This document shows positions 7,764 to 64,000 of a DNA stretch of 64,000 nucleotides, piece after piece (position 1 is the first letter of the stretch; each line of letters opens with the position of its first letter). The notes below the pieces were generated by a model. The model made no database searches. It was not told the DNA's origin and saw only the letters and a program-made list of their open reading frames with translations. Made by a program: the position numbers and the translations under genes. This DNA is from an uncultured virus (IMG/VR IMGVR_UViG_3300046168_000066) (taxonomy: Duplodnaviria > Heunggongvirae > Uroviricota > Caudoviricetes), in the IMG/VR virus record IMGVR_UViG_3300046168_000066. One strand, 5' to 3'.

Positions 7764-8594
7764 ATGGGAGACGATATAATACAAGAAAATGTACTACCTG
7801 AAAAAGTAGAGTCAGTGTTCTATCACTCGTTTATGAGTGGACTTGCTAATAGAATGAGGGCGTGGGTAACGAATTCTGGATTCGCAGAATATATGGATGT
7901 TCCATTTATTATGAAATGGCGTCCCGATGATGCGTGTGGAAAAAAGAATTTTGAGGATTTATTTGAAATTCCGGATAATATGCAATACGAAACGGGTCGT
8001 AGATATCAACCAGATGCAACCACATTATGGATCAAGAAAAATTATCCAAACAATAATTTTCACGGAAGATTCATTGAAGGAAATTATGATTTATCTGTGG
8101 AAGAATTTCAAGAATATGTAAATAATCAACGCAGACATATAAAACCAATTAAAACAATTCAAGATCAAATAGACAAATATACATCAGAACTTGACTTAAA
8201 AAATACAATTGGATTGCATATTCGCAGAACTGATTTAAAAGAGCAAGATAAAAGTCCTGACACTTGGTTTGATCAAAACATTCAAAGTGATCTTGAAGCA
8301 AATCCAAATGCAAGATTCTTTTTGGCGACGGATAACAAGTGGACAGAAGAAAAGTTTATGACCAAGTATGAAGATATAATGGTCAAAGCAAACAGAGACT
8401 TTGATGATGATGTTGACGGAGGAGAAATTTATCCCGGTGGTCATCGTCATCGTCATTCACCTGTTGAACAAGGATTGGTTGATATGATGTTGTTGTCAAA
8501 AACTCAAAAAGTATATGGATGCCACGGAAGTAGTTTTGGTCGTTTCGGTGCTTGGTTTGGTGGAAAAAAATTCATCATTTCAGATTTAGATTAA
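7764..8594 (+). CDS. Fucosyltransferase-like glycosyltransferase (GT-B, GT11/GT23 superfamily)
   Basis: GLANRMR, IGLHIRRTD, FFLATDN and DMMLLSK...SSFG motifs. Confidence 0.75.
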   Translation: MGDDIIQENVLPEKVESVFYHSFMSGLANRMRAWVTNSGFAEYMDVPFIMKWRPDDACGKKNFEDLFEIPDNMQYETGRRYQPDATTLWIKKNYPNNNFHGRFIEGNYDLSVEEFQEYVNNQRRHIKPIKTIQDQIDKYTSELDLKNTIGLHIRRTDLKEQDKSPDTWFDQNIQSDLEANPNARFFLATDNKWTEEKFMTKYEDIMVKANRDFDDDVDGGEIYPGGHRHRHSPVEQGLVDMMLLSKTQKVYGCHGSSFGRFGAWFGGKKFIISDLD

Positions 8595-8610
8595 ATTAAA
8601 AAAAGGAGAT

Positions 8611-9285
8611 ATGAAGAAATTTAAGTATAGTATGTTGTCATTGCCACGATGTGGTTCAAATTGGGTTCGTTATTGGTTCGAATATTTTTCAAACGAAAAC
8701 ACAAGTGAACGAAATGTTCTTGTGGAAAAAAATCATTGGGGAATGGAACGCACAACTGATACAACCGCAACCTTATATAAACGTCACAAATTATCTCAAG
8801 AGGATATTGTTGGGCGTGAAATACAAAAACTTGTTTTAATTGTAAGAGATTATCGTGAGTGCTTTGTTCGTCATTGCGTTGGAAAAAAGTTTGCGAGACG
8901 TGTTGGTCGAATGAAAGATTTTACCGACAATATGTACACATATGATTCATTTCAAGGAGAAAAAATGATAATGTATTACGAAGATTTTGTTGCTGACCCA
9001 AAAACATATATGAAGCAGTTTCTTGATTTCGTAGATGCACCAAACGAGTGGGACAACATTGATGTAGCAGAGCATCGTGACATTTCAGTAAAATTGTATG
9101 AAAATGGAGGAAGTGAAAAAGTAGGATCTCAAACAAAAGGTGCTCCATCTTTGACAAAAGGAAAAGCAGATTTTAAGTTTCACCAAAAAGAACTGGATGA
9201 CGAAACAAAACAACAACTTGAAGAGTGGTTTCAAGAAGAGCATTCAGATATTCACAACAACTATCTTGATAGATACAAATTATAA
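8611..9285 (+). CDS. Sulfotransferase domain protein
   Basis: 5'-PSB-like loop SLPRCGSNW, IVRD (3'-PB), YYEDF; SD aggag. Confidence 0.7.
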   Translation: MKKFKYSMLSLPRCGSNWVRYWFEYFSNENTSERNVLVEKNHWGMERTTDTTATLYKRHKLSQEDIVGREIQKLVLIVRDYRECFVRHCVGKKFARRVGRMKDFTDNMYTYDSFQGEKMIMYYEDFVADPKTYMKQFLDFVDAPNEWDNIDVAEHRDISVKLYENGGSEKVGSQTKGAPSLTKGKADFKFHQKELDDETKQQLEEWFQEEHSDIHNNYLDRYKL

Positions 9286-9299
9286 AAACTCGTTTCGTT

Positions 9300-9308
9300 A
9301 TATTTATA
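9300..9308 (+). promoter_or_regulatory. ATATTTATA motif
   Basis: Just upstream of ATG 9313. Confidence 0.5.
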
Positions 9309-9312
9309 TTGT

Positions 9313-10092
9313 ATGGAAAATGGTGAATCTAAAATATTTGATATCGACTGGAATTTGGTCGTAAATTTGGGAATTAAATGCAATACGTTGGGAATTTCTC
9401 GTTCCGCAAACGTTCGTTACTATTCAAGTCCATTTGATAATATGGATACGGTGGAAGGTCTTACTGATTGTGCTAATTTAATGGCAGACGGATTTGAAAA
9501 TTACTTTTCAAACAAAGAAGATTGGGAAGTAGTAAACGAATATGCACCAAGAAGCACCGAAATCCGTAATAAAATTGTTTCTCACAAAAATACTCCAAAA
9601 GTATATTATCCACACTTTGCAGATGTGTGGTTCAAGAATACATTAAGCAAAGACGAATTGCACGATTGGAAACTCGGAGAAGAACTTACCATTGATCCGA
9701 TTTGGGAAGATTTCGTTCGTGTATTTGAAAATCGTCAACAAAGATTGGCATCACAACTCAGAAGTAAAAACAAAATATTGTTTTTCCGTGCAGATGAAAA
9801 ACGACAACTCAAACGAGCACACGGAACAAATCAGGACGAAGACATAAATTATTTTATTACAAGATTACAATCTGCATATCCTCAGACTGAAATTGGGTTG
9901 TTGTATTTTTACTGCAACAATAAAAAGTTTGAAAGAAATTTAAGTTCTTCGGAGTATGCTCACACAGAATTAATTCCAGACAACATCAAAGAAGATGAAT
10001 ATTCAATCGAACGATTAAAGCAACTTACAGTTTCACCACGTGAAAATATGCTCGAAATTGATTTTGAAAAAGTGTGCAGTGATACCGAATAA
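9313..10092 (+). CDS. DUF1796-like (putative papain-like) protein
   Basis: NLGIKC..., SSPFDN, YPHF, RQQRL...KILFFR pattern; paralogue of 38338..39153. Confidence 0.6.
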   Translation: MENGESKIFDIDWNLVVNLGIKCNTLGISRSANVRYYSSPFDNMDTVEGLTDCANLMADGFENYFSNKEDWEVVNEYAPRSTEIRNKIVSHKNTPKVYYPHFADVWFKNTLSKDELHDWKLGEELTIDPIWEDFVRVFENRQQRLASQLRSKNKILFFRADEKRQLKRAHGTNQDEDINYFITRLQSAYPQTEIGLLYFYCNNKKFERNLSSSEYAHTELIPDNIKEDEYSIERLKQLTVSPRENMLEIDFEKVCSDTE

Positions 10093-10120
10093 AGTTTCCT
10101 AAAATTATATTTATTATAAT

Positions 10121-11987
10121 ATGGGGGATTCTGCTGATAAAAAAAGATTTGATTTAATTTTCAACAACTTCTGCAAAAAACTTACATTAAATGTTGATTC
10201 AATGTATGGCCAGTTTTTTGATTTCTGTAAACAAGTTGGTATTGATCCTGATTCTGCATATAAATTGATTGCAGATGATCCTAAACTAATGCATTCATAT
10301 GTTTGTAAGATAAAAAATTCGGAAATAAAAAACAATCCTTTGAATTTTAAAAAACACTCTAATTTTGGTTCGGTTATTATAGAAGATAGATGCCTTCCTC
10401 ATTTAGAGTGCCTTATTAGAAATACTATATTAAAAACACCTGATAATTGGAATCATTCGGTTGTATGTACTCGGTTGAACTTTAAACCAATCAATCAACT
10501 TTGCAAACGCATACATAAAGATATAAAAGTAATATCGGTTGGCATCCCCAATTTTACACAAAATACATATAATGATATGCTTTTGTCTAAGTGGTTTTGG
10601 AACAAAATTGACAGTGAAAATATTTTAATATATCAACAAGATAGCTTTTTATTTCGTGAAGGCATTGAGGAATTTTACGAATATGATTATATAGGAGCTC
10701 CTTGGTTACCACATCAAACAGACAACGAACTGGGTGTAGGAAACGGAGGATTCTCGTTCAGATCAAAAAGTAAAATGTTAAAGTGCTTAGACACAATAAA
10801 TCCAAAAAAACTTCAATTGAGTTCTGATACCTTAAACTACATGAGAAATTGTAATTTACACAATCCACCCGAGGATGTTTACTATAGTAAAGCAATGATT
10901 GATCATGATCTCGGAAATGTGGCAAACAGAGAAGTTGCAAATCAGTTCGCAGAAGAACGAGTTGCATCGATGAATCCCCTCGGGGGTCATCAGTATTGGT
11001 TAGCAAGTTGTGAAGAAATGTTTCGTTTATTTAAACCGTTTAATATGATAGATTGGAGTTATTTCGAAGGAGAGTCATCTGCACATCGTGGTGGGTGGAA
11101 ATCTTTGATATCTTATATGATGGCAAACAATATACTAAAAGGTGATTGTGGAACACCACTTATTGATGTTGCAGAAAAGTATTTCGTTTGGGATTCTAAG
11201 CCTGTCGTGAAATGGCCCTGGATAGGAATTTCGCATATGACACCAAACACACCCGAGTATCTTCGTATAGCAGATATCGATAGATTGATTGAAAATGAAA
11301 ACTTTATAAAAAGTTTACCATCGTGCAAAGCATTGATAGTGCTAAGTGACTATATGAAGAAATATTTAACAGAAAAGTTAAATAATATATGCGAAGTAAA
11401 TATTGTTTCAATGAAACATCCCGTTGGTGATGACATCAAACAGTTTGACATCCAAGAATTTTACAAACACGATGAAAAAAAGGTGATACTGCTTGGTCAG
11501 CAAATGAGAAAAATATCTTCTATATATCTGTTAAAAACAAAATGTAAAAAATGGTGGATGTATGGGCCATCCCGATAAATCATTAATGGTTAACAGAAGA
11601 AACGATGAATTTAAAATGCTTAAAACATATCCAAAAGCAGACACGGTGGAAATGGTAAAGGTAAGCAGTAATGCAGAATATGATAAAATTATATCAAAAA
11701 ATATCATATTGATGGATTTTATTGATGCATCGGCAAATAATGCGATAGTTGAATGTATATCTGCAAACATTCCATTTTTTACTAAAAGACTTCCTGCGAT
11801 TGAAGAGTATTTGGGAAAAGACTACCCAATGTATTTCAATAATTTATCAGAGGTCGAAAACATTATCAACGATGATGTAAAACTAAAGGAGATTTATACT
11901 AAAACTAATTTATATTTACGAAATTTAGATAAAAAACAACTAAGTTATGAATATTTTTGTGACAAATTATTGGAGTTGATAAACTAA
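10121..11987 (+). CDS. DUF5672-like glycosyltransferase fused to a second GT-like domain (one apparent +1 frameshift near 11565)
   Basis: ILIYQQDS...YDYIGAPW...VGNGGFSFRS...PEDVYY; removing one G of tatgggccat joins ORF 10121 to ORF 11562 (YGHPDKS). Confidence 0.7.
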
Positions 11988-12710
11988 GTGAAATTTGAAG
12001 AAAAAAGATTATTATTAAAACCTGACTTTTGCTTTTATCATATACCAAAGTGTGGAGGAAGCACGATCCGTGCGACTTTATACGACTTCTTTTCAGAAAT
12101 ATATAAAAAACCTGAAATGTATTGTCCAGAGAAGTCTTCAATTAAATATAATTTTGGTTCGGTAGAAGCAGTTAAGGAATTCGTGGCGAATAAATCTTTG
12201 GAACAATTAAGTCAGATTAAAATATTATTGTGTCACACACGATACAATTTACCTAATATCTCGGATAAATTCGGTGAACATAAATCGTCCGTCATTTTAA
12301 GAAATCCTACTTCCAGATTAATAAGTCATTATGAATTTTTTGATTATCCTAAAACAAAAATCCATATGAATAAATTACCAAAAGATCAGTTGGAGGAATA
12401 TTGTATTAGAATGTCATCTGTGACTACCGAATATTTATCAAAAAATAATGATGTTTCTGAAGCACTTGATAATATTAGTAAAATAGATTTTGTGGGAGAT
12501 ATTTCAAAATTAGATAATTTTATTGAAAGCATAATTAAATTCTATTGTAAAAAATTTGAAATTTCTGATACTGATCACAAGATAACGACACGTAATGTTA
12601 ATAGCAATAAAATTATTGACAGAAAATTAGCCGATAATGTGTTTGAAATTATTTCTGAATTACCTGATTGGGAGCTATACAATCAACTGAAATTAGAAAA
12701 AATCATTTAA
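11988..12710 (+). CDS. Sulfotransferase family 2 protein (divergent)
   Basis: FYHIPKCGGST; LRNPTSRLISHY. Confidence 0.8.
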   Translation: MKFEEKRLLLKPDFCFYHIPKCGGSTIRATLYDFFSEIYKKPEMYCPEKSSIKYNFGSVEAVKEFVANKSLEQLSQIKILLCHTRYNLPNISDKFGEHKSSVILRNPTSRLISHYEFFDYPKTKIHMNKLPKDQLEEYCIRMSSVTTEYLSKNNDVSEALDNISKIDFVGDISKLDNFIESIIKFYCKKFEISDTDHKITTRNVNSNKIIDRKLADNVFEIISELPDWELYNQLKLEKII

Positions 12711-12713
12711 AAA

Positions 12714-13463
12714 ATGAAACCTTCTACTAAAATAAAAAACTTTTGCATACTTGGAGAAAGAAACTCAGGAACAAATTTCCTGCATAGTGCAATAAAATTA
12801 AATTTTGAATTAAAATATAAAAAAATTTGTCATAAGCATTTTTGGAGAATTGAAAATCAACTTTCCTTACTTAAAAATACTGCAATACTGGTTATAGTTA
12901 GAAATATACACGATTGGATTAATTCTATGTATCAGTCTCCATTTCATTTACAACCTGAATTGAAAAATCCGAAAAATAAATTTGATTTTCTAAATAAGCA
13001 GTTTTGGAGTGTGTACGATGATGTAAACGAACACGGCAACTGGTATGACCAAGAAATACAAGAAGACCGACACTTAGTCACTGGAGCAGCTCGGTATAAA
13101 AATATATTTCAAGCACGTTACACGAAGTATAATCAAATTTTAAAACTCTTGACAAATGATAATTCCCACATTTATTTACTTAAGTATGAAGATTTGAATG
13201 AAGGGTATGATAAAAATTTACGACTTATATCTGCACATTACAACTTAAAATTTAATGATTCTGTGATAAATAAAGTAAATACATATCGTGGTTTCAAAAA
13301 ATCAGAAAAAATGATTAATATTCAATCAAAACCTAAGATATTTACTGAGTTAGAAATAACTTCACATCCAGATTTTTCTTTAAATAACGAAATGCAACTT
13401 GGATACATACAGAAAAAAAAGGCTGATGTAGGATCATTTAAATATACCAATATTGTTTCGTAG
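12714..13463 (+). CDS. Sulfotransferase-like protein
   Basis: GERNSGTNF P-loop-like PAPS motif; VRNIHDWINS; LKYEDL. Confidence 0.6.
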   Translation: MKPSTKIKNFCILGERNSGTNFLHSAIKLNFELKYKKICHKHFWRIENQLSLLKNTAILVIVRNIHDWINSMYQSPFHLQPELKNPKNKFDFLNKQFWSVYDDVNEHGNWYDQEIQEDRHLVTGAARYKNIFQARYTKYNQILKLLTNDNSHIYLLKYEDLNEGYDKNLRLISAHYNLKFNDSVINKVNTYRGFKKSEKMINIQSKPKIFTELEITSHPDFSLNNEMQLGYIQKKKADVGSFKYTNIVS

Positions 13464-13544
13464 TATAATGAGTTCGTGCAAAAAAAACTTGTGTATGACT
13501 CAAACGAGTATTGGGTGTACGACAATGTAAGTAAAAAATAATCC

Positions 13545-14279
13545 ATGATTTCTCACTCTAAAAAATTTGTATTTGTACACATTCCTAAAACAGCAGGAAC
13601 ATCTATTACTAATGTGCTTGATACACATTGTGAAGTAAAGTCAGCTAACGATCCTAGTTGCCCGTTTTATTATCACGCATCTGCAATTGAACTTAAAAAT
13701 TTCTTTGATGAAATGAAGTGGGACTGGAATGAATATTTTAAGTTTACATTCGTAAGAAATCCGTGGGATCGTTTAGTTTCGTATTATGAGTTTACAAAAC
13801 AACGATACGAAAAATTGATGAATGATAAGTTGTTATCAACTGATTTGATATGCAAACAATTTGGTGAACAAGTTTATTCATTTGAAGATTTTATATTTAA
13901 TTTAGAAAAATACGCTCCCAATTCAGATGCTTATTATCATTCTGTTGATGGAAATGCTGAAATGAACTTTGTTGGAAAAATTGAAAATTTGCAACACGAT
14001 TTTAATCATGTTTGTAAAACCATAAATATTCCAATTTCTAAATTACCACATTTACAGACAACCTCCAGAAAGCATTATAGTGAATATTATACTGAAATTA
14101 CTAAGAGTATTGTTGCAGAAAGATTTTCACAAGATATTTCTATGTTTGGTTATGTTTTCTCTGAACCAACTCCAAACAAACATAAAAAGCAATTTTTTAA
14201 ATATCGTTATACTGAATACAAAAATGAACAAAAACAAAAGCATTTTAATGCTTACAATGCTAGAAAACCAAACTCGTAA
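13545..14279 (+). CDS. Sulfotransferase family 2 protein
   Basis: MISHSKKFVFVHIPKTAGTS; FVRNPWDRLVSYY; FVGKIENL. Confidence 0.88.
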   Translation: MISHSKKFVFVHIPKTAGTSITNVLDTHCEVKSANDPSCPFYYHASAIELKNFFDEMKWDWNEYFKFTFVRNPWDRLVSYYEFTKQRYEKLMNDKLLSTDLICKQFGEQVYSFEDFIFNLEKYAPNSDAYYHSVDGNAEMNFVGKIENLQHDFNHVCKTINIPISKLPHLQTTSRKHYSEYYTEITKSIVAERFSQDISMFGYVFSEPTPNKHKKQFFKYRYTEYKNEQKQKHFNAYNARKPNS

Positions 14280-15126
14280 TTTAAACTATTACGAAAATTT
14301 GATTGATCGTATAAAGCAAACTTATTACAACAAAATTGATGTAGTGATAGTTGTTGCTACACAAAGTGAGTTCAACTTTAATTACGAGTTTGAAAAAACA
14401 AATTGTGCAATATATTTTGGTGTAAATGAAAAAAGTTTAAATTCTAAATTCAGTCAATTGTCTTCCGATAAAATTATTTTTTGTGCAAACAGAGGTTATG
14501 ATGTGGGTCCTTTTCTAATTGGATGCAAGCACATAGAAAACCAGTATGAGTATATAATTCACATTCACGCAAAAAATAATGACACTTGGAATAAACTTTT
14601 AACAACGATAGCAAATTGCAATATCACCGAACTTGATGTTGATACAATAATTCCAAATCAAGATGTACCTGGATTAAAAACTTTAACTACAACAGATACA
14701 TCAGATGGTAACTATAATATACTTGATAGTCATAGACATTTATTTCCGTTTTATGATACATCTTGGGAGTATTCATCGGGTAAAATGTTTGCGACAAAAA
14801 TGCAGTTTCTGAAACCATTGTTAAACAACTTTGATGAAATTTATTCGTTACTTACAGATAAAAATAAAAATGATGTTTATTGGCAGACTGCTATGAATAA
14901 TATTAAACTTTTCAACAAATATTATAACGAATATTTGAACAATGACATCAATAAACCAATATCCAAGTATGCATCGTTTATGAGACAAAAATACAAATGC
15001 AGAAATTATTTTGAATTGCTAAATAAAGGTTATCGTGGAATACCTGATTTACAAATTGAACACGCAATTGAAAGGTATCTTGGTTATTTGATTTGTCGCA
15101 ATAAAAAACTACACTTCTCTGAGTAA
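14224..15126 (+). CDS. RgpF (rhamnan synthesis protein F)-like rhamnosyltransferase
   Basis: NRGYDVGPFL, YIIHIHAK, SGKMF, EHAIER motifs; start placed at ATG 14224. Confidence 0.65.
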   Translation: MNKNKSILMLTMLENQTRNLNYYENLIDRIKQTYYNKIDVVIVVATQSEFNFNYEFEKTNCAIYFGVNEKSLNSKFSQLSSDKIIFCANRGYDVGPFLIGCKHIENQYEYIIHIHAKNNDTWNKLLTTIANCNITELDVDTIIPNQDVPGLKTLTTTDTSDGNYNILDSHRHLFPFYDTSWEYSSGKMFATKMQFLKPLLNNFDEIYSLLTDKNKNDVYWQTAMNNIKLFNKYYNEYLNNDINKPISKYASFMRQKYKCRNYFELLNKGYRGIPDLQIEHAIERYLGYLICRNKKLHFSE

Positions 15127-15143
15127 GTGGTATTTATTGTATA

Positions 15144-15824: not shown

Positions 15825-15832
15825 TATTTATA
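15824..15832 (+). promoter_or_regulatory. ATATTTATA motif
   Basis: Upstream of the epimerase start at 15851. Confidence 0.5.
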
Positions 15833-15850
15833 TAAAAAGGAATTTTAACT

Positions 15851-16875: not shown

Positions 16876-16898
16876 AAATAGAAAGATGGAGATAATGA

Positions 16899-18798: not shown

Positions 18799-18810
18799 AA
18801 GGAGATTGAT

Positions 18811-19824: not shown

Positions 19825-19846
19825 CCAACAAATAGCAATATATAAT

Positions 19847-22867: not shown

Positions 22868-22870
22868 AAA

Positions 22871-52753: not shown

Positions 52754-52758
52754 ATAAT

Positions 52759-53400: not shown

Positions 53401-53403
53401 AGG

Positions 53404-54150: not shown

Positions 54151-54152
54151 AC

Positions 54153-55658: not shown

Positions 55659-55702
55659 TTAGTAGCATTTTATACAAATTCTAAACAAATGATATTACCG
55701 AT

Positions 55703-56522: not shown

Positions 56523-56531
56523 TAATACACA

Positions 56532-57128
56532 ATGATAAGTCACGAATATAAATTTATTTTAATAACACCGAAAAAAACTGGTTCAACCAGTCTAACAAGT
56601 GCATTGCTACCCTATTGTGATGTCAAAAAAATTAATCAAGAATCTTCTCAATGTTTTAATATATTTGATGAGTTTACAACTAAATCAAACAAATATGGAA
56701 GCAAGCATATTACAATTCAAAAGGTTCAACGAGGTTTAAATAAAAGACAAAAAGATATTAAAGATTTTTTAAAAATTGGAGTTGTACGCAACCCGTTTAG
56801 CAGAGTTATTTCATTTTGGAGATGGAGTGGCAAATTCAATAACTTATCTTTTTCAGATTTTCTAAAATATAAGAAACCTCCTGAATATTTCAGTTCGTTT
56901 GTTCTGAATGGAGAATTTGTCATGGATTGTGTAATAAAATTTGAAAACCTCCAACAAGATTTCAATATCGTCTGCGACAAAATCGGAGTTCCCCGTCAAG
57001 AACTTCCACATACAAACAAAAGCAAACACAAACACTATACCGAATACTACGATGAAGAAACGAAGCAAATCGTTGCGGAAAGATACGCAAAAGACATTGA
57101 GCATTTTGGATATGAGTTTAGGGAATAG
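56532..57128 (+). CDS. Sulfotransferase family 2 protein
   Basis: TPKKTGSTS; VRNPFSR; conserved tail. Confidence 0.9.
   Translation: MISHEYKFILITPKKTGSTSLTSALLPYCDVKKINQESSQCFNIFDEFTTKSNKYGSKHITIQKVQRGLNKRQKDIKDFLKIGVVRNPFSRVISFWRWSGKFNNLSFSDFLKYKKPPEYFSSFVLNGEFVMDCVIKFENLQQDFNIVCDKIGVPRQELPHTNKSKHKHYTEYYDEETKQIVAERYAKDIEHFGYEFRE
56937..57128 (+). repeat. Sulfotransferase constant 3' repeat copy
   Basis: Direct DNA comparison with the other copies. Confidence 0.88.
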
Positions 57129-57131
57129 GAT

Positions 57132-58043
57132 ATGAACGCAAATGAAACCTGTATGGATAAAAAATTTTTAGGATTGATAACTCGTTGTAAAGATGAGTTT
57201 TTTGTTGGAGAATTCTGCAAATATTACTTAAGCCAAGGTGTCGACTTCATTTATATTATAGATGATGACAGTAATGATAAATCAATTTATGATAATATTA
57301 AAAAAAATCATAATGTAAATGTAATATTTAAAAAAAATGTCTTAGGCGATGGTTCAGAAAATAGTCACGAAATGGACGAAGTAAATAATGTGTATCGAGA
57401 AATCAAAAATGATTTTGTATGGATTATTTCTGTAGATGTGGATGAATTTATTACAACTAAAAAAAATATTAAAAAAACTATCAAAGAGGAATTAAAAACC
57501 ACATTCAAGGATGCCGATTGTGTAAAAGTTCCGTGGGTAATGATGTCTTGTAACAATAAAGAGAAAAATCCAAAAAGCATTTTAAGAGAAAATGTATATA
57601 GATGGAATCATGACAAAAAACATCGTCCTCCAAAGAAGAACCATAAATTTAGGTGTAGATATAATAAAATAGAGGTTAAATGTATATTTAAATCCAGTAA
57701 ATGGAATAAAATTGTTGTTCATTATCCTGCAAATAAAGTTGGAAATTGCAAAATCGTTGATAGTATCAACAACCACCAGCAAAAAGTATTACGTCGTCTT
57801 CATTCTAAGCTAAGAGAATCTGATATCGAAGAAGGGTATTTACTTTGCTACCACTATAGAACTATAAGTGTAGAAAATTGCAAAAAAAAGATTAAAAACT
57901 CAATAGAAACCAACAATCCAGTCGGAAAACTTGGATATGGGTATATTACACTAGAAGACATTATGAAATCAGATTTTCCGGAAGTCTATGATGATACTTT
58001 AAAAATAAAGATAAATAACTTAGGAGAGAGTGGTGGAAAGTAA
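57132..58043 (+). CDS. Glyco_tranf_2_4 / GT92-like glycosyltransferase
   Basis: EFCKYYLSQGVDFIYIIDDDS, SVDVDEF, KCIF, YHY. Confidence 0.78.
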   Translation: MNANETCMDKKFLGLITRCKDEFFVGEFCKYYLSQGVDFIYIIDDDSNDKSIYDNIKKNHNVNVIFKKNVLGDGSENSHEMDEVNNVYREIKNDFVWIISVDVDEFITTKKNIKKTIKEELKTTFKDADCVKVPWVMMSCNNKEKNPKSILRENVYRWNHDKKHRPPKKNHKFRCRYNKIEVKCIFKSSKWNKIVVHYPANKVGNCKIVDSINNHQQKVLRRLHSKLRESDIEEGYLLCYHYRTISVENCKKKIKNSIETNNPVGKLGYGYITLEDIMKSDFPEVYDDTLKIKINNLGESGGK

Positions 58044-58080
58044 AGACATTAAGTATTTTAATTATGAGTTTGGAGGATAA
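58042..58080 (+). pseudogene. Orphan 3' tail of the sulfotransferase repeat
   Basis: aaagacattaagtattttaattatgagtttggaggataa = KDIKYFNYEFGG*. Confidence 0.85.
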
Positions 58081-58083
58081 AAT

Positions 58084-58977
58084 ATGAAAGACTCATTATT
58101 TGACTTAGCAATACTACGTTCAGGATTTGGTCGCAACGGATATAACTACTTTAAAAATGCTCAGATATTCCAAAAATTTAGAATAGTAATTTGCCCACCA
58201 CAATTAGGATCAATAATACACAATAAAAATTCAGAATATCCTCATGTGTTTTGTAAATCATCGGTGAATCCTGAAATCATTTTTGAAAATATAGATTATA
58301 TAAACCGTAGGTGTGGAAAAAATAAGAATTTGATTCTCGGATCAGCTGATCGATCAAGAAATATTTATAATTTTGGCTCTGAACTAAAGAAACATTTTGA
58401 TAACATTTTTTTGGAAGCATTAAATCGTGATGATCCTAACATAAAAACATTTCCAATGGGATTTACATATCGGTATGTAAAATATTTTAACAAAGATATA
58501 TTTAGTAAACTGATAAATTGTTCGTATAATATACAAAAAGAAAAACTAATAGGAACTGCATTTGGAAAAAGCTGGCCTTCATTATCAAATCGTCTTTCTG
58601 ACCGTATTAATATATTAGATGCGATTACTAATAATGAACTTATAGAAAACTTTTTCTGCGATTTATCAGAATATCATATCAAAAAAAGTCAATATATGTA
58701 TTTTGCAAGTCCCCGTGGGAAAGGAATCCAATCTCCTAAAATATATGAATCTATAATGTGTGAAACAGTTCCAGTGTTAACTGATGCTCCGTATGCAAGA
58801 CAACTAAGAGATTTATATAATTTACCAATTTACATAATCGACAAATGGGAAAATCTAAATGAAAATCATTTAATTGAAACATACGAAAATAAATATAAAA
58901 ATTACGATTGGTGTTCTTTGAAAAAAAGATTTCATGTAGATAATTTTATAGGTGAATTTTTAAATAAAGATTATTGA
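58084..58977 (+). CDS. Exostosin (GT47)-like protein
   Basis: FPMG; YFASPRGKGIQSPKIYESIMCETVPV; LPIYIIDKW. Confidence 0.65.
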   Translation: MKDSLFDLAILRSGFGRNGYNYFKNAQIFQKFRIVICPPQLGSIIHNKNSEYPHVFCKSSVNPEIIFENIDYINRRCGKNKNLILGSADRSRNIYNFGSELKKHFDNIFLEALNRDDPNIKTFPMGFTYRYVKYFNKDIFSKLINCSYNIQKEKLIGTAFGKSWPSLSNRLSDRINILDAITNNELIENFFCDLSEYHIKKSQYMYFASPRGKGIQSPKIYESIMCETVPVLTDAPYARQLRDLYNLPIYIIDKWENLNENHLIETYENKYKNYDWCSLKKRFHVDNFIGEFLNKDY

Positions 58978-59103
58978 TGCCGTTCCCACAATTGAATTTT
59001 ACGATTTCCGACATATCTGCCACAAAAAAGCATACAATTTTTCAAATTATTTTCATAAACCCCCTCGTCTTTCTATTTATATAAGGAGGTTAGCAGATAG
59101 ATA

Positions 59104-59676
59104 ATGATAAGTCATAAACACAAGTTTATTTTTGTTCACATTCCCAAAACGGCAGGTCGAAGCATAGAAAAATATTTGCTAAATTTTAATTCTATGAGAG
59201 AAATGCAACCACATCACTCGGTCACCGATTACATTAAAAGAGTAAAAAATTTTAATTCTATGTTTAAATTTTCATTTGTAAGAAATCCATATGAAAGATT
59301 ATTAAGTGAATATTTTTACATGAAGAGGATGAAAGGTTGTAACTGTGAATTTAAAGATTTTAAAATAGAGTGCAATACATTTAAAAAATTTGTAATTTCC
59401 GATGCGGTAGAAAAATGTTGTTTTAAACATCACAATACTCCACAAATTGAAATGGCAAATCCCAAATACATGAATTTTATAGGAAGATTTGAAAATCTCC
59501 AAGAAGACTTTGATATTATCTGCGACAAAATTGGAATTCCACGACAACAACTTCCACACAAAAACAAAAGCAAACACAAACACTACACCGAATATTACAA
59601 CGATGAGACGAAACAAATCGTTGCGGAAAAATACGCAAAGGATATTGAGTATTTCGGTTATAAATTTGGAGAATGA
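59104..59676 (+). CDS. Sulfotransferase family 2 protein
   Basis: FVHIPKTAGRS; FVRNPYERL; conserved tail. Confidence 0.9.
   Translation: MISHKHKFIFVHIPKTAGRSIEKYLLNFNSMREMQPHHSVTDYIKRVKNFNSMFKFSFVRNPYERLLSEYFYMKRMKGCNCEFKDFKIECNTFKKFVISDAVEKCCFKHHNTPQIEMANPKYMNFIGRFENLQEDFDIICDKIGIPRQQLPHKNKSKHKHYTEYYNDETKQIVAEKYAKDIEYFGYKFGE
59473..59676 (+). repeat. Sulfotransferase constant 3' repeat copy
   Basis: 59513-59598 is identical to 60128-60213 (86 bp). Confidence 0.92.
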
Positions 59677-59679
59677 GGA

Positions 59680-60294
59680 ATGATAAGTCATAAGTATAAA
59701 TGCATATTTATTCACATACCTAAATGTGGGGGTTCTTCAATAGAAAATGCCATTGATGGTAGAGACTGGTGGAATATAAACAAACCAATTAACATAAAAT
59801 GTGAAAAACACTTTTCAGCTGAGAAGTGTAAGCAACAATATAGCAAGTATTGGGAAGAATACACCAAATTTACTATGGTGCGAAATCCTTATTCATTACA
59901 AGTATCATGGTATTTTTTTAAAAATATATATAATCACAAAATGTCCTTCAAAGAATATGTTAAAAACGAAAAAATTAATCGTATTTCAAGATATAGTGGT
60001 GGGTTCTTAGATAAAAAGTGGAGTAAGATAATGCCAGACTTATTAACATCTTACGAGTATATTTCAACTAATGGTGCAATTGAATTAGATTTCATCGGAA
60101 AATTTGAAAACATCCAAGAAGACTTTAATATTATCTGCGACAAAATTGGAATTCCACGACAACAACTTCCACACAAAAACAAAAGCAAACACAAACACTA
60201 CACCGAATATTACGATGACGAAACTCGTCAAATCGTTGCGGAAAAATACGCAAAGGACATTGAGTATTTTGGGTATGAATTTGGGAAAAGTTGA
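59680..60294 (+). CDS. Sulfotransferase family 2 protein
   Basis: FIHIPKCGGSS; VRNPYS; conserved tail. Confidence 0.9.
   Translation: MISHKYKCIFIHIPKCGGSSIENAIDGRDWWNINKPINIKCEKHFSAEKCKQQYSKYWEEYTKFTMVRNPYSLQVSWYFFKNIYNHKMSFKEYVKNEKINRISRYSGGFLDKKWSKIMPDLLTSYEYISTNGAIELDFIGKFENIQEDFNIICDKIGIPRQQLPHKNKSKHKHYTEYYDDETRQIVAEKYAKDIEYFGYEFGKS
60088..60294 (+). repeat. Sulfotransferase constant 3' repeat copy
   Basis: 86 bp identity to the 59473 copy. Confidence 0.92.
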
Positions 60295-60989
60295 TGAACG
60301 ATACGCAAAATATTGCAATTGTATACTCAGCACACGGTAAGAAATATACGAAATACGCAGAACGATGTGCAAGATATTCTAAAAAAATTATTTGCGACCA
60401 AAAATGTGATTTGGTATTTCATACTAATCACGATTATGATAATAGTGAAGGTATATTTGATAAAGTAGTTTATGAGAAAAATATTTTTCCATCACATAAG
60501 TCACACGCATTCAAAATACAAGGAATCATAAATTTGCTATGCAATACGACATATAAAAAGTTTTTATACATCGATAGTGATGCCATTATACTAAAAAAAG
60601 ATTTTATGATTCCGTTTGATTATTTAGATACTCACGATTTATTAGGTGTGAGTGCAAAAAAAGAATATGGTCCAAGTTCAAAGGAAATAGATTCTATTGG
60701 AAAGTATGTAAAAATTCCAAATAGTTTTGGTGAAATTAATACCGGAGTTATTTATTACAATAATAATGCGGATATAATAAGATTAATGAAGAATTGGTTA
60801 GATTTTTTCTTAAATAACTATAAAAAAAAGTATGACCAAGGTGGGTTTAGATTATGTTTGTATGAGTCAGATATAAAATTTAAGAGAATAGATGATATTT
60901 TTAATCAAAGATTTAAAAAACCAAATAACGAAACCGTCATACTACACGGACCGGGAAGCGTATTTAAGTTAATAGATAGTTGTTCTTAA
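60294..60989 (+). CDS. GT8-like nucleotide-sugar transferase
   Basis: FLYIDSDA, INTGVIYY, DQGGFR, ILH; similar to 30760. Confidence 0.7.
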   Translation: MNDTQNIAIVYSAHGKKYTKYAERCARYSKKIICDQKCDLVFHTNHDYDNSEGIFDKVVYEKNIFPSHKSHAFKIQGIINLLCNTTYKKFLYIDSDAIILKKDFMIPFDYLDTHDLLGVSAKKEYGPSSKEIDSIGKYVKIPNSFGEINTGVIYYNNNADIIRLMKNWLDFFLNNYKKKYDQGGFRLCLYESDIKFKRIDDIFNQRFKKPNNETVILHGPGSVFKLIDSCS

Positions 60990-61014
60990 ATTTATATACA
61001 GAATATTTATTTAT

Positions 61015-61962
61015 ATGAAAAATGTAGCATTTATAGACTATAATATGTGTGAACGTGGAACAACGATTGCGACTTACGATTATGCACTACATAATGAAAA
61101 AATACTTGGTAATAAATCATTCATATTTTATGACATAAATTCAAAATCAAAAAAAGAAAAAGTAATTAGTAAATTTAAGAAACAATTTTGTGATGTGATT
61201 GGATTCACAAATTTTTCTGAAGTGGATAGTTACATAAGTCAAAATAAAATTACTCATTTGTATAATTTAATAGGAGGTAGGTATAAACCTGCTTTGAGTA
61301 AGTATGCTAAAAATTGCATTCATTACGTTTTTACTTATCAAGATTATGGAGATATAAATGTTGCGTTGAGTCCTGTGATTAAAAATTTTAAAAAAAGTAT
61401 GAATATCTTGCCCCACCTGGTTGACTTACCAGTTGTTACTAATGATTTAAGAAGTAAACTTGGCATTCCACCAAATTCAACTGTTTTTGGTGGATACGGT
61501 GGAAAGGATATGTTCAATATAAAAGAAGCACAAGAAGCAGTGTATGAGGTTGCTTCAAAAAATAAAAACATTTACTTCCTCTTTGCTAATTTTCATAAAT
61601 TTTGTGATACATTGCCAAATGTTATTCATTTACCTTGTATTGTTGATATAAAAGAAAAAGTTGAATTTATAAATACCTGCGATGCAATGATGTGGGCAAG
61701 AAAGCAAGGTGAAGTTATGAGTATGGCAATGGGTGAGTTTGCTACAAAAAATAAACCAATAATTGCTACAAAAAAAGGATTTTTCCGTGGCCACTGTCAT
61801 ATATTGGGTGATACGGCAATTTGGTATTCTACGAAACAGAGTTTGATAAATATACTTGAAAATTTTGATAAAAACATAGAGTCAAATAAAAATTGGAATG
61901 CATATCGTGAGTATACTCCTAAAAAGGTTATGGAGATATTTAATAAAGTTTTTTTAAAATGA
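61015..61962 (+). CDS. GT-B (GT4-like) glycosyltransferase
   Basis: ERGTTIATYDYA, LRSKLGIP, FGGYGG, FINTCDAM..AR..GE...GEF...KP. Confidence 0.7.
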   Translation: MKNVAFIDYNMCERGTTIATYDYALHNEKILGNKSFIFYDINSKSKKEKVISKFKKQFCDVIGFTNFSEVDSYISQNKITHLYNLIGGRYKPALSKYAKNCIHYVFTYQDYGDINVALSPVIKNFKKSMNILPHLVDLPVVTNDLRSKLGIPPNSTVFGGYGGKDMFNIKEAQEAVYEVASKNKNIYFLFANFHKFCDTLPNVIHLPCIVDIKEKVEFINTCDAMMWARKQGEVMSMAMGEFATKNKPIIATKKGFFRGHCHILGDTAIWYSTKQSLINILENFDKNIESNKNWNAYREYTPKKVMEIFNKVFLK

Positions 61963-62768
61963 AACTATCAATTTACACACGGATAATGCCAAGACTTGAA
62001 ACTTTTTTTTTAGAAGAATGGATCGAACACAATTTGCAAATTGGAGTTGATAAAATTTATATATACGATGCCGGTAATAAACCTTTTAACGATAGAGGTG
62101 GCCATAAAAATAGAACTGATGTATTTAATGATCTCCATCGAGAACTCAATAATTCAGAAAAAAATATTAAGTGGGGCAAAAAACCAAATGTAGATTACTT
62201 TTTAGATTATACAGAAAAAGAAATTCAAGATAAATTGTATGAAATACAAAATAAGTTTAAAAAAAATACAGAAATTACAGATTGGAAATATGGAAAAAAT
62301 CATAACGAAAAAGAAAATGTTCGTTCTCAGATTCTTGGATATAAAAATGCTGTAACTCAAAATAAGTCAGACTGGTGGATGTTGTTAGATCCAGATGAAT
62401 TTTTACATAGTTGTGAGTTCACATATATCAAAAAATTTCTATGTCAAATGGAAGAACAAAAAAAGTTTTCATTAAAATTATCTCAAAGAATTTTTAAAAA
62501 TAGACAACGGAATGTTTCTACTAGGAAAATCTTTGAGTATAGTGGAGATCTTAGGTTAACAAAGACATTGGTTAAATCACCTATAATTTCTGAACTAAAA
62601 TTACATTCTGCCGAATCTACTTTGTCTACATCATACTTTGTTAAGCCAAGAAAATTTAGATTTAACCATTACAGAGGTCCTTCGGAGCAAATGGGCGGAC
62701 CTGCATACGGTAAACTTATGTACAAACCTTTTAATAAAATTGATAAAGGTATGTTAAAATATCTGTAA
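61959..62768 (+). CDS. Glyco_tranf_2_4 / GT92-like glycosyltransferase
   Basis: LEEWIEHNLQIGVDKIYIYD, LLDPDEF, FNHY. Confidence 0.75.
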   Translation: MKLSIYTRIMPRLETFFLEEWIEHNLQIGVDKIYIYDAGNKPFNDRGGHKNRTDVFNDLHRELNNSEKNIKWGKKPNVDYFLDYTEKEIQDKLYEIQNKFKKNTEITDWKYGKNHNEKENVRSQILGYKNAVTQNKSDWWMLLDPDEFLHSCEFTYIKKFLCQMEEQKKFSLKLSQRIFKNRQRNVSTRKIFEYSGDLRLTKTLVKSPIISELKLHSAESTLSTSYFVKPRKFRFNHYRGPSEQMGGPAYGKLMYKPFNKIDKGMLKYL

Positions 62769-62779
62769 ACATTCACTTG

Positions 62780-63412
62780 ATGAAAAAAAAATTAATATAT
62801 AGATTGGGCGATGTAGTGCGAACGCAATATTTTCACTTGGACACATCTTTATATACAGACGGTGAGTATAAGAATACGATTGCTGGTAAATATATGCAAT
62901 CTACTACCGAAAAAAATAATTTTGATTTGTTAAATGAAATTGTCCTCAATTTTGAAAAAAAACTTAAAATGACAAAACCAACTTCAAACGAGTGGGTTGT
63001 TCATATACGACTTGGTGATGTTTTGGAAAAATCCAAACATTCAGTTGAAGAACATTTTGAAAATGATATAAGAAGTGAGGGAAAAGGAATTTCGGATTCA
63101 TTCTACATTAAACCAAAGATATTTTTTTTAAACAGAATAAACAAGATGAAAAAACTTGGGATAACGAAAGTAATAATCTGCTCAAAATTTCATAAAGCAG
63201 AAGATGATCACAAAAAGAGCAGTTTATATTTGGAAAATGTGATTGAATTGTTTAAACGTAATGGATTTGAGGTTAATTTAAGAGTCGGTAAATTTGATGC
63301 AGATGAAGATTTCACATTTTTAGTTAACTCAAAATACTTTACCAGCACTGGAGGTGGTTTTTCGTTATTCGCAAGTAAACTTATTGAACTTCGTGGCAAC
63401 AATAATATTTAA
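62780..63412 (+). CDS. Fucosyltransferase-like (HxRxGD) protein
   Basis: YRLGD, VVHIRLGDV, ADEDF, TGGGFS; paralogue of 36973. Confidence 0.65.
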   Translation: MKKKLIYRLGDVVRTQYFHLDTSLYTDGEYKNTIAGKYMQSTTEKNNFDLLNEIVLNFEKKLKMTKPTSNEWVVHIRLGDVLEKSKHSVEEHFENDIRSEGKGISDSFYIKPKIFFLNRINKMKKLGITKVIICSKFHKAEDDHKKSSLYLENVIELFKRNGFEVNLRVGKFDADEDFTFLVNSKYFTSTGGGFSLFASKLIELRGNNNI

Positions 63413-63426
63413 TTTTTCAGTAGAGT

Positions 63427-63435
63427 ATATTTATA
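63427..63435 (+). promoter_or_regulatory. ATATTTATA motif
   Basis: Upstream of ATG 63442. Confidence 0.5.
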
Positions 63436-63441
63436 ATAGAG

Positions 63442-64000
63442 ATGATTAAAACAGCAGTATACGCATATTGGGCGAAACCTTTTTTGGAAAAAGAGTCGTA
63501 TAGCAATTTTGAACGAAAAAATGATTTGTTGGTATCATTAAGACTCAGTGTCGAGCAATCAAGAAAGTTTTTTGATAAAATTGTTTTTTATGGAGATCAC
63601 GAAGCAATTGCACAAATTTGCAACATCGTAAAATTTGATGAAGTATACGATGATGTAGAAGAACTAAACGAAAAAAATATTCCAAGTTATTTTTATTCTC
63701 TTCCAAAAGTTGTTGCGTGTGAAAAAATGAAAGAACCTTTCGTTTTAATTGAAAATGATTTTTATTTGTGGGACATTCCAAAATCAAGTAACTTTTATGA
63801 AGCACCTTTAATTGTTGAGGATTTCCACGAAACTCCGATTGAGTTTTACGATGAAATTGACAGAATGCAAGAAAAAGAAATGGCAACTCGTCCACGATGG
63901 TATCGTCTTGCTAAAAAAGGAAAATTTTCAATTCCACAAAAAGGAATATACGGTGGAAACGATATAAAGTTTATCAACGAACACGCATTGGAAGTTATGC
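63442..64000 (+). CDS. DUF6734-like putative GT-A protein, 3'-partial (absent from the ORF track)
   Basis: ATG 63442 MIKTAVYAYWAKPF...YSLPKVVAC..MKEPFVLIENDFYLW, open to the window end. Confidence 0.6.
   Translation, partial: MIKTAVYAYWAKPFLEKESYSNFERKNDLLVSLRLSVEQSRKFFDKIVFYGDHEAIAQICNIVKFDEVYDDVEELNEKNIPSYFYSLPKVVACEKMKEPFVLIENDFYLWDIPKSSNFYEAPLIVEDFHETPIEFYDEIDRMQEKEMATRPRWYRLAKKGKFSIPQKGIYGGNDIKFINEHALEVM

Follow-up and report, generated by a model that had tools for sequence, protein, structure and literature searches.

A predicted sulfotransferase-rich glycan island, with no export genes in view, in a 64-kb stretch of probable tailed-phage DNA

Islands of glycan-synthesis genes are known from marine phages and marine bacteria alike. 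The host recognition cluster (HRC) of pelagimyophages is described, in the available text of the study, as a non-syntenic island with a mean length of 44.6 kb that holds fibres together with glycosyltransferases and is placed, within the T4-like structural module, between VrlC and the neck gene gp14 (Zaragoza-Solas et al., 2020, PMC7029224). Across 135 complete Pelagibacter genomes, the SAR11 hypervariable region HVR2 was reported, as far as the accessible text goes, to reach 59 kb in length with as many as 100 genome-specific genes, among them glycosyltransferases, epimerases and sulfotransferases; the same text gives a GC content of 22-25.5%, a 16S-23S pair and a 5S gene inside the region (median 46.8 kb apart, 23S to 5S), tRNA borders, and O-antigen ligases among the cell-surface genes enriched in genome-specific genes (bioRxiv 10.64898/2026.04.03.716430). 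Glycosylation of the virion itself is known in mycobacteriophages (Freeman, 2023, as cited in the accessible portion of PMC12619734). Here, we analysed a 64-kb stretch of DNA at its full length (hereafter the window), in which an island of glycan-synthesis genes at 7764-64000, rich in predicted sulfotransferases, directly follows the genes of large lectin-domain and EF-hand-repeat proteins.

The + strand of the window was tiled by 70 open reading frames (ORFs) of at least 100 amino acids, all co-oriented, and each of the eight minus-strand ORFs was nested within + strand genes. Positions 7764-64000 comprise about 64-67 of these genes, which corresponds to at least 56 kb of enzymes and agrees with the roughly 65 co-oriented genes counted in an earlier sequence-only reading of the same DNA. 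The median intergenic spacer was about 3 nt. The GC content was about 31% overall and ranged from 0.284 to 0.349 in 2-kb steps, with an A-rich coding strand (AT skew about +0.12). No tRNA and no match to an Rfam family was detected in the 64 kb. Domain assignments were obtained by scanning all 70 proteins against Pfam, 61 against NCBIfam and 22 window ORFs against PHROG.

Sulfotransferases were numerous. A total of 18 of the 70 ORFs matched Sulfotransfer_1/2/3 in Pfam at E<=0.01, starting on the + strand at 8611, 11988, 12714, 13545, 21633, 22871, 28329, 46950, 47540, 48185, 48821, 50700, 51245, 52759, 54141, 56532, 59104 and 59680, which is the number that the sequence-only reading had estimated. 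All 18 exceeded the 22-bit cut-off of Sulfotransfer_1 or Sulfotransfer_2, with Pfam E-values down to 1e-20; the weakest scores were those of 8611 (24.4 bits), 11988 (24.6) and 12714 (23.4). By BLASTP, 16 of the 18 formed a single paralogue family of about 200-aa proteins with 35-51% identity, and the remaining two, 8611 and 12714, were Sulfotransfer_1-like. Sulfotransferases that use 3'-phosphoadenosine 5'-phosphosulfate (PAPS) share a 5'-phosphosulfate-binding loop, PKxGxT/S, and a 3'-phosphate-binding R...S that follows a beta strand. In an alignment of 14 of the window sequences (A2), V-R-N-P and S (VRNP...S) were invariant and E-N..D was conserved, and the N-terminal 'IPKTAGTS'-type loop (PKTxGT) was conserved as well, with degenerate forms such as 'VTKTGSTT' and 'MEKTGSVS' in some copies. 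An AlphaFold2 model of one sulfotransferase (predicted local distance difference test, pLDDT, 78) gave Foldseek matches in the PDB of which those listed were PAP/PAPS sulfotransferases or close relatives; the matches were weak, with only one at E<=0.001 and template modelling (TM) scores of 0.4-0.57. The 18 ORFs are predicted PAPS-dependent sulfotransferases, and the sulfation of glycans is their predicted function. Their number was the highest among those compared, the ten whole IMG/VR records used for comparison containing 10, 8, 5, 9, 5, 2, 4, 4, 3 and 2 matches, so that the copy number described earlier as exceptional was borne out within this set.

The sulfotransferase paralogues were unevenly conserved along their length. 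The mean protein identity was 64% in the C-terminal third against 29% in the N-terminal part (55 pairs, 11 paralogues), and a conserved 196-nt module was found at the 3' end of the genes (reference copy 59474-59669, + strand). Eleven DNA copies were present at 62-100% identity, nine of them at 71-91% to the reference copy; they include 23292-23487, 47341-47536, 48615-48810, 53198-53393, 55459-55654, 56926-57121, 59474-59669 and 60089-60284. Orphan remnants of the module were observed in the spacers at 58044-58083 and 36938-36975. The module encodes the last ~65 codons of the paralogues, ending '...IVAEKYAKDIEYFGYEFGE', and its conservation may be due to cassettes recombining or converting one another, or else to a shared docking peptide.

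The sulfotransferases were accompanied by a large set of glycosyltransferases. Pfam assigned 23 ORFs to glycosyltransferase-like families, namely GT77/Nucleotid_trans (6), GT2-like (4), GT25 (3), FUT8/NodZ-like (3, scoring under the Pfam cut-off), GT11 (2) and GT92 (2), with GT8, RgpF, PLOD-GT and Mannosyl_trans3 as singletons. Four further ORFs were transferase-like, one by a PHROG match (43216), one by paralogy to GT25 (35986-36937) and two by the HxRxGD motif (37231 and 62777). This brings the total to about 27 glycosyltransferase-like genes and, together with the sulfotransferases, to about 45 transferases. The GT25, GT77, GT8, GT2-like and GT92 families named in the sequence-only reading were thus recovered by Pfam, its GT47-like and GT4-like genes were not, and its nine or so fucosyltransferase-like genes were reduced to seven (three FUT8/NodZ-like, two GT11 and two by motif only). 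Further families were DUF1796 (three copies), DUF5672, DUF6734, Methyltransf_24, a hexapeptide acetyltransferase, an SGNH/GDSL protein and a GHKL ATPase.

Nucleotide-sugar enzymes were represented by RmlA, RmlB, an RmlD-like reductase, an Fcl-like epimerase/reductase and a fusion of nucleotidyltransferase, HAD phosphatase and kinase. Pfam and NCBIfam thus agreed with the acetyltransferases, methyltransferases and nucleotide-sugar enzymes proposed before; NCBIfam recognised only the rml genes, the epimerase, the acetyltransferase and a few weak matches. RmlC was not found in the window; the deoxythymidine diphosphate (dTDP) route may therefore lead to a 6-deoxy-D-hexose instead of L-rhamnose. 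GDP-mannose dehydratase was also absent from the window and is present in one related contig (L001). The description of the product as rich in deoxysugars is consequently backed in part only, by the dTDP-6-deoxyhexose route and the fucosyltransferase-like enzymes, with the two enzymes just mentioned missing from the window.

The window was further characterised by what it lacks. In a Kyte-Doolittle scan for transmembrane helices, 69 of the 70 ORFs had no 19-residue segment of 1.6 or above, and a single borderline segment (1.67) was seen in ORF 36038; six large proteins of the related contigs likewise had no hydrophobic segment at the threshold. Signal peptides were not found on the large upstream proteins. 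These results agree with the earlier remark that transmembrane helices and signal peptides are not obvious here. No member of the Wzx, Wzy, ABC, Wza or phosphoglycosyl-transferase families was detected within the window by Pfam and NCBIfam, as had been read from the sequence; such genes may lie beyond its ends. The window therefore shows no initiating transferase, flippase, polymerase, exporter or multi-pass membrane protein of the kind that marks a bacterial capsule or O-antigen locus, and neither an O-antigen ligase nor a housekeeping gene was found in the 70 ORFs or in the related contigs.

Immediately upstream of the enzymes lie three large genes on the + strand. The first (1-1932) is 5'-truncated; the 643 aa seen contain a Pro/Thr/Ser-rich linker near the start, and no Pfam or PHROG match and no visible signal peptide were found. 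The second (1954-5613) encodes a 1219-aa protein with a Laminin_G_3 (ConA-like lectin) domain, a Thr-Pro linker and a rare C-terminal region of about 600 aa composed of a helical bundle and beta domains. The linker (aa 263-288) was nearly invariant in five aligned sequences, and the product is a candidate fibre-like protein and a candidate glycan acceptor. The third (5610-7718) encodes a 702-aa protein, without a signal peptide, of repeated modules of about 170 aa, each with an EF-hand/dockerin-type Ca-binding loop DxDxDGxI, separated by Ser/Thr-rich spacers. These are followed by an anchor pair (7764-9285) formed by a FUT8/NodZ-like glycosyltransferase (7764-8594) and a Sulfotransfer_1-like gene (8611-9285).

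Relatives of the lectin-domain protein were found in six metagenome loci. The block order of lectin protein, EF-hand/dockerin-like protein, FUT8/NodZ-like and Sulfotransfer_1-like gene is common to the window and to two of them (L001 and L005), with identities of 55-63%, 52-56%, 70-80% and 70-88%, respectively. Downstream of the anchor the content diverges: L001 has Gmd and an epimerase, and a DUF1796 gene recurs in L005 6 kb on. The proteins upstream of the block also vary, with Big_13/Ig_J domains in L002, an ALK-type glycine-rich domain and RCC1 repeats in L005, and DUF285 in L001; the neighbour protein in L002 matches Ig_J and the PHROG 'central tail fiber J'. In another locus (L006), a sulfotransferase (485-1009) stands immediately upstream of the lectin gene (1044-2762), so that, in at least one lineage, glycan genes adjoin the 'structural' genes from either side. 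The lectin and EF-hand genes thus lie within the glycan region, and what surrounds the conserved anchor of the island is hypervariable. The lectin protein itself is rare, forming only four clusters among 5.8 billion proteins, none of them from NCBI. For its C-terminal 619 aa, 29 relatives were retrieved from 1.84 billion representatives, and none of them carried an informative Pfam domain.

The signals for expression were of a bacterial type. The words GGAG, GAGG or AGGA occurred at -18 to -4 of 21 of the 60 starts, compared with 24 of 272 internal in-frame ATGs (8.8%) and 7.9% of random 15-mers, and such a Shine-Dalgarno sequence was still present at 15 starts once the cases lying inside the conserved 'FGE' end of an upstream sulfotransferase were dropped. 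Start and stop codons overlapped by 4 nt at nine junctions and by 1 nt at five. The enrichment and the overlaps indicate bacterial-type translation, which argues against a giant virus. A promoter-like motif, TATATTTAT (core TATTTAT), was matched 15 times against 3.9 expected, a number reached in none of 100 shuffles, and it was present in 9 of 61 upstream 40-nt stretches against 0.2 expected. Its + strand copies at 1938 (1938-1946), 7744, 9299, 10106, 19846, 25653, 42072, 42951, 45827 and 63426 each lie shortly upstream of a start codon. The motif begins 11-20 nt ahead of most of the starts it precedes, and the farther copies have an intervening Shine-Dalgarno sequence; this proximity implies, if the motif is a promoter, nearly leaderless mRNAs. 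It also precedes the orthologue of the lectin gene in L001, L002 and L004, contigs that have copies at 1835 and 15430, at 130 and 5260, and at 76, respectively. An archaeal TATA box was ruled out as an identity for TATATTTAT, since 11-20 nt is too near the starts and the lectin start is conserved in five orthologues. The T4 late-promoter word TATAAATA was found in none of the 61 upstream stretches.

The kinship of the island enzymes points towards tailed phages. The nearest Atlas clusters of one sulfotransferase were mostly 'Viruses, Uroviricota', which is a lead only, and an IMG/VR scan with the sulfotransferase alignment returned 563 relatives, with 71 loci kept and up to nine sulfotransferases per 20 kb. 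The record with the most matches, G001 (146,036 bp, CheckV 100%), encodes ten, together with a DnaE-type polymerase, primase, DnaB helicase, RNR, UvsX and a sigma factor as well as minor tail proteins of the lambda type, a J-type central fibre of 2116 aa and a long ORF for a tape measure. Four of five other island-bearing records, one of which is complete at 203 kb, have a polymerase 61-63% identical to that of G001; its identity to that of any cultured phage is at most 33%. Three viral loci (L061, L021 and L046) contain runs of at least 20 kb of co-oriented, abutting genes of 200-300 codons belonging to the families of the window, and the genes shared with the window were 40-69% identical by blastp. 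The tblastn comparison of viral loci with the window retrieved the epimerase (69%), the GHKL ATPase (46-50%) and also GT77, methyltransferase and GT92 genes, and a module of epimerase, GT77, ATPase, GT77 and methyltransferase recurs in L061, L062, L046, L021 and L049.

The replicon is probably a tailed phage. This verdict follows from the prokaryotic starts and overlaps, the Uroviricota kin of the sulfotransferases, the smaller islands in complete siphovirus-like genomes, the weak likeness of the upstream proteins, which have no signal peptides, to fibre and baseplate proteins of phages, the absence of rRNA and tRNA, and a GC content above that of the SAR11 hypervariable region. The phage origin that the sequence-only reading thought probable is accordingly favoured by the kinship of enzymes and layout with verified tailed-phage genomes, by the lack of export genes and by the mismatch with HVR2, and is left without a hallmark gene and with a lineage not seen in IMG/VR.

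The reading that we favour, tentatively and with something short of even confidence, is that the island belongs to a hypervariable region, linked to the fibres, in a marine tailed phage that has not been cultured, and acts as an exporter-free cytoplasmic assembly line that coats the phage's own fibre proteins. The enzymes would act in the cytoplasm of the infected cell, where phage enzymes would make dTDP-6-deoxyhexose and other nucleoside diphosphate (NDP) sugars. The anchor pair of fucosyltransferase-like enzyme and sulfotransferase would start chains on the linkers of the large proteins, and the remaining soluble glycosyltransferases, of the approximately 27 in all, would extend them. The 18 sulfotransferases would sulfate many positions, with PAPS supplied by the host or by genes beyond the window, while the methyltransferase, the acetyltransferase and the SGNH enzyme would add further decoration. 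The presumed acceptors are the adjoining lectin-domain and EF-hand-repeat proteins, which we infer to be fibres and which would leave on the virion as heavily sulfated, deoxyhexose-bearing glycoproteins. Related phages would differ by exchange of gene cassettes downstream of the conserved anchor. A stronger form of the proposal is conceivable and rather doubtful: the phage would devote at least 56 kb, perhaps a quarter of its genome or more, to a factory that renders its own lectin-domain and Ca-binding fibre proteins mucin- or proteoglycan-like and multiply sulfated, with the 3' module of the 16 paralogues serving as a recombination handle that shuffles acceptor-specific cassettes.

Several observations weigh against this reading. 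No terminase, portal, HK97-fold capsid or tail gene was detected in the 70 ORFs by Pfam, or by PHROG in the 22 window ORFs and in seven upstream ORFs of relatives, the 64 kb being part of a larger replicon; the related contigs L001, L002 and L005 also showed no phage hallmark. The IMG/VR protein and alignment scans were empty for the lectin protein, its alignment (A1), a distant relative (P0007), the large upstream proteins of L002 and L005 and the FUT-like anchor. The complete record G001 has no TATATTTAT, no Shine-Dalgarno enrichment (16 of 150 starts) and no lectin protein, which places the window organism outside the G001 clade, as a different lineage with a different type of host and the same kind of island. 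No PAPS-synthesis gene was found within the window. The lectin protein and the product of the first ORF have no real relative in cultured phages; by tblastn, the lectin protein gave a single 86-aa LamG-domain match to a cyanophage structural protein. A model of its C-terminal region (pLDDT 84.9) matched Caudovirales structural, VrlC-like, baseplate-J, fibre and tip-attachment proteins in BFVD at E-values of 2e-6 to 1e-3, with TM-scores near 0.1 and in a database that is viral only, and the modelled likeness to phage proteins lends weak support. VIA-align found on the same model only one generic six-stranded beta-barrel (residues 409-491), and Foldseek gave only weak matches in the PDB. Finally, GT8 and GT25 are lipopolysaccharide (LPS)-type families.

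The stretch 1954-7718 was present in 20 sequencing runs of 19 studies, all of them seawater or marine metagenomes, and 15 runs contained at least half of its words. Six of the 20 were RNA libraries, two of them oligo-dT (X17 and X20, with 0.37 and 0.20 of the sampled words). Contigs from four RNA libraries covered most of 1-20000, one contig of 2,628 nt being identical to 8052-10679; these data are assembled contigs in which DNA carry-over is possible, and uncovered bins are no evidence. The oligo-dT contigs could stem from internal priming on the A-rich strand, from DNA carry-over or from real polyadenylated RNA, and no poly(A) loose end was seen among the rows listed. An exact 40-nt word from the window start had no match in IMG/VR or in the JGI metagenomes.

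The main alternative, itself rather unlikely, keeps the same phage island and has the host envelope as its target, which was one of the two functions suggested by the sequence-only reading beside a virion coat. Soluble transferases would alter lipid-linked LPS, capsule or S-layer intermediates at the inner face of the host membrane, the host would export them, and superinfection would be blocked or the behaviour of the cell changed. This is the published interpretation of the glycosyltransferase-rich HRC of pelagimyophages, for which the authors favour modification of the host O-chain in the available text (PMC7029224), and this too counts against fibre coating. The GT8, GT25 and RgpF genes of the window belong to LPS- or rhamnan-type families, and sulfotransferases are common in the SAR11 surface-glycan island, which makes a sulfated host glycan plausible. 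Bacterial O-antigen transferases are, moreover, commonly peripheral and devoid of transmembrane helices. Known seroconverting phages, however, bring GtrABC-type membrane proteins, and the 70 ORFs of the window contain no membrane component at all. The modification of the envelope also gives no role to the conserved linkage with the Thr-Pro-linker proteins, and about 45 transferases would be a huge outlay for a transient change in a cell that is soon to be lysed.

A cellular origin is also on the unlikely side. The window would then come from a marine bacterium with a streamlined, AT-rich genome and represent its hypervariable island for surface glycans, similar to HVR2 of SAR11, and the large proteins would be secreted without a signal peptide. 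HVR2 has the same enzyme classes, up to 100 genes in 59 kb with sulfotransferases among them, and this likeness is a further point against the phage fibre reading. Homopolymer-type indels such as those in the window are typical of long-read metagenome assemblies, no viral hallmark gene was found, and the occurrence in seawater runs of 19 studies speaks for an abundant organism, with the poor assembly of such islands as a possible explanation for its absence from species genomes. Against this stand the GC content of 0.28-0.35, compared with 22-25.5% for HVR2 genes, the lack of rRNA and tRNA in 64 kb, the co-orientation of 70 out of 70 genes, and the absence of any membrane protein, O-antigen ligase, flippase or housekeeping gene from the 70 ORFs and the related contigs. 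The lectin protein gave one relative and no locus in 185,579 species genomes, in a scan that used two peptide patterns only, and its few clusters among the 5.8 billion proteins contain no NCBI entry.

Very improbable is an origin from a giant virus (Nucleocytoviricota) that infects a marine protist and would glycosylate its capsid fibrils with soluble enzymes, as mimiviruses and chloroviruses do. GT77, GT92, FUT8-like, PLOD-GT and DUF5672 genes are typical of eukaryotes and giant viruses, and one Atlas neighbour cluster of the DUF5672 protein was 100% Nucleocytoviricota (score 0.80), which is a lead only. The words found in the two oligo-dT libraries and the closeness of TATATTTAT to the start codons point the same way. 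The same families are, however, present in verified tailed-phage genomes, the Shine-Dalgarno sequence is enriched about fourfold, 14 stop/start junctions overlap, and 70 genes share a single strand with a median spacer of about 3 nt; the oligo-dT capture, given the A-rich coding strand, may be internal priming, and no poly(A) loose end was among those listed. The analogy with giant viruses drawn in the sequence-only reading is thus useful as a working model only, the translation signals being prokaryotic. Finally, hypermodification of the phage DNA with glycans against restriction is hardly credible: viruses are known to encode glycosyltransferases for the decoration of DNA (Pyle, 2024, as cited in the accessible portion of PMC12619734) and the kinase part of the 605-aa fusion has relatives of 26-28% identity in T-even-like coliphages, but neither a hydroxymethylase nor a dNMP kinase nor any other gene for base modification turned up among the 70 ORFs (Pfam) or the 22 (PHROG), 18 sulfotransferases and about 27 other transferases go far beyond any known DNA glycan, and the conserved linkage points to the Thr-Pro-linker proteins.

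The remaining genes of the island, all on the + strand, can be followed from the anchor to the edge of the window. The segment 9313-15824 holds, by Pfam, a DUF1796 gene, a DUF5672 gene, a 141-aa unknown, the three sulfotransferases at 11988, 12714 and 13545, an RgpF-like gene and a GT77. It is followed at 15851-18798 by the Fcl-like NDP-sugar epimerase/reductase, with a frameshift near 16021, and by the nucleotidyltransferase-HAD phosphatase-kinase fusion, with a frameshift near 16920. A GT77 and the 584-aa GHKL-type ATPase (HATPase_c_3) occupy 18811-21640. A mixed block assigned by Pfam (21633-35958) contains the sulfotransferases at 21633, 22871 and 28329, DUF1796, GT2/GT7C, GT25, a GDSL/SGNH hydrolase, a GT25-GT77 fusion and GT77, together with FUT8/NodZ-like, Mannosyl_trans3-like, methyltransferase, PLOD-GT-like, GT11 and GT8 genes. 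The segment 35986-42044 comprises a frameshifted GT25, the frameshifted fucosyltransferase-motif gene (36972-37593), GT25, DUF1796, GT25, FUT8/NodZ-like, the hexapeptide acetyltransferase and a GT2-like gene. The dTDP-6-deoxyhexose genes lie at 42090-45805, namely RmlA (intact and above the TIGR01207 cut-off), the PHROG glycosyltransferase, the RmlD-like gene (one frameshift) and RmlB (two frameshifts). Four tandem sulfotransferase paralogues of about 200 aa each (46950-49510) lead into a sulfotransferase-rich second half (49489-63412), in which the sulfotransferases at 50700, 51245, 52759, 54141, 56532, 59104 and 59680 are interleaved with GT2-like, GT11, two GT92, GT77-like, the fucosyltransferase-motif gene at 62777 and five unknowns. 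A DUF6734 gene (63442-64000) leaves the window, and the far end of the island is out of view.

Some of these genes merit separate mention. The triple fusion at 16897-18798 joins a nucleotidyltransferase, a HAD phosphatase of the capsule-phosphatase type and an APH-like kinase, and probably provides a one-protein path from sugar to NDP-sugar; partial relatives turned up in 375 records of phages, T-even-like coliphages, Ralstonia phage phiRSL1 and Synechococcus phage S-SKS1 among them. The GHKL ATPase of about 580 aa (HATPase_c_3; 19886-21640 in the window, 3379-5103 in L061, 14255-16027 in L021 and 6666-8387 in L046) accompanies GT77, epimerase and sulfotransferase genes, with 40-42% identity by full-length blastp and 46-50% in the best tblastn segment, and has no sequence relative in the PDB. 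The DUF1796 paralogues (9313-10092, 22328-22867 and 38338-39153), annotated as 'putative papain-like cysteine peptidase', are set among transferases, and a glycan-related role seems more likely than proteolysis given this setting; one window copy is 79% conserved in its relative in L005 (20210-20989). Neither DUF1796 nor the GHKL ATPase had relatives in cultured phages by tblastn. The hexapeptide acetyltransferase (40819-41352) reaches 1e-47 against Vat/CatB xenobiotic acetyltransferase models, yet lies far under their curated cut-offs, and is most likely, from its context, a sugar O-acetyltransferase. Three of five IMG/VR records (G001, G002 and G008) encode, beside their sulfotransferases, an adenosine phosphosulfate (APS)-kinase-like gene that has no homologue in the window. 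The protein of about 270 aa (in G001, L079 3230-4033, minus strand) combines a P-loop domain with a nucleotidyltransferase-like domain carrying an HxGH motif and, judged from these domains, may be a minimal PAPS-supply enzyme.

Seven genes were broken by single-base frameshifts, often at homopolymers (15851-16875, 16897-18798, 35986-36937, 36972-37593, 43990-44866, 44867-45805 and 50700-52138). The breaks were located in the epimerase (~16021), the fusion (~16920), GT25 (~36037), the FUT-motif gene (~37100), the RmlD-like gene, RmlB (twice) and probably at the 50700/51245 junction. Contigs of four other libraries carried one additional base at 16021/16023 and one base fewer at 16920-16923 relative to the window. 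The corrected lengths in other libraries show that these two breaks are assembly errors or variants of one assembly and not a population trait; true pseudogenisation of the epimerase and the fusion was ruled out by the intact lengths. The window looks like a long-read assembly with indel errors, which slightly inflate the ORF counts.

Sulfated glycans typify the matrices of animals and the walls of algae. If a common seawater phage does coat itself or its host with sulfated, deoxyhexose-rich chains, views of adsorption, particle stickiness, grazing, decay at sea and the viral use of host sulfur in the form of PAPS would have to be revised. Should cassettes be shuffled as proposed, related phages would show different sulfation codes, a glycan-based variation of antigens or host range that has been described for no phage. 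Such a phage would also offer small, soluble sulfotransferases and glycosyltransferases of differing specificity by the dozen, and long glycan islands without an export gene may serve as a marker of viral, rather than cellular, origin in metagenomes. In the literature covered, which did not extend to subscription journals, sulfotransferases appeared only as passing mentions among viral auxiliary genes, and no account was found of phage islands rich in sulfotransferases or of phage glycans that are sulfated.

Compared with known systems, the window resembles SAR11 HVR2 in size, in enzyme classes including sulfotransferases and in strain-variable content, and differs from it in its higher GC content (0.284-0.349) and in having no rRNA, tRNA, O-antigen ligase or membrane protein. 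The giant-virus clusters of Mimivirus, Megavirinae and chloroviruses are likewise exporter-free and cytoplasmic, with their own nucleotide sugars and soluble eukaryote-like transferases; the window differs in its prokaryotic translation signals and operon-like packing, and sulfation is not known to be a feature of those clusters. In mycobacteriophages, soluble phage glycosyltransferases reportedly modify virion proteins in the cytoplasm, a handful of transferases without sulfation being documented there by mass spectrometry, whereas the window has approximately 45 predicted transferases, sulfotransferases included.

In sequence, the closest relatives are the apparently undescribed islands of siphovirus-like phages in IMG/VR. 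The 146-203 kb phages G001, G004, G006, G007 and G008 share with the window the short Sulfotransfer_2 family (up to 51-53% identity, 79% for one copy), GT77, FUT-like, GT92 and methyltransferase genes, the epimerase (69%), the GHKL ATPase (40-50%) and the tight co-oriented layout. Unlike the window, these records have 2-10 sulfotransferases each and no homologue of the lectin or EF-hand proteins, and G001 has neither TATATTTAT nor Shine-Dalgarno enrichment.

Among published systems, the closest analogue is the HRC of the T4-like pelagimyophages and cyanomyophages. Both are large, AT-rich marine islands beside fibre genes (here presumed ones), which combine glycosyltransferases with sugar-nucleotide enzymes and vary between relatives, as far as the available text on the HRC describes it. 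The non-synteny of the HRC type can be seen in the window, L001 and L005, where a conserved anchor is followed by divergent content. The window differs in that neither VrlC, gp14 nor any further T4 core PHROG turned up in the scanned proteins, although the window and the related contigs may not reach these genes, and in that TATAAATA is absent upstream of its genes (0 of 61). It is also larger, the enzymes alone taking up at least 56 kb, and sulfotransferases predominate in it; the available text on the HRC makes no mention of sulfotransferases. The window is thus an extreme form of such a cluster, with the largest island and the most sulfotransferases of those compared.

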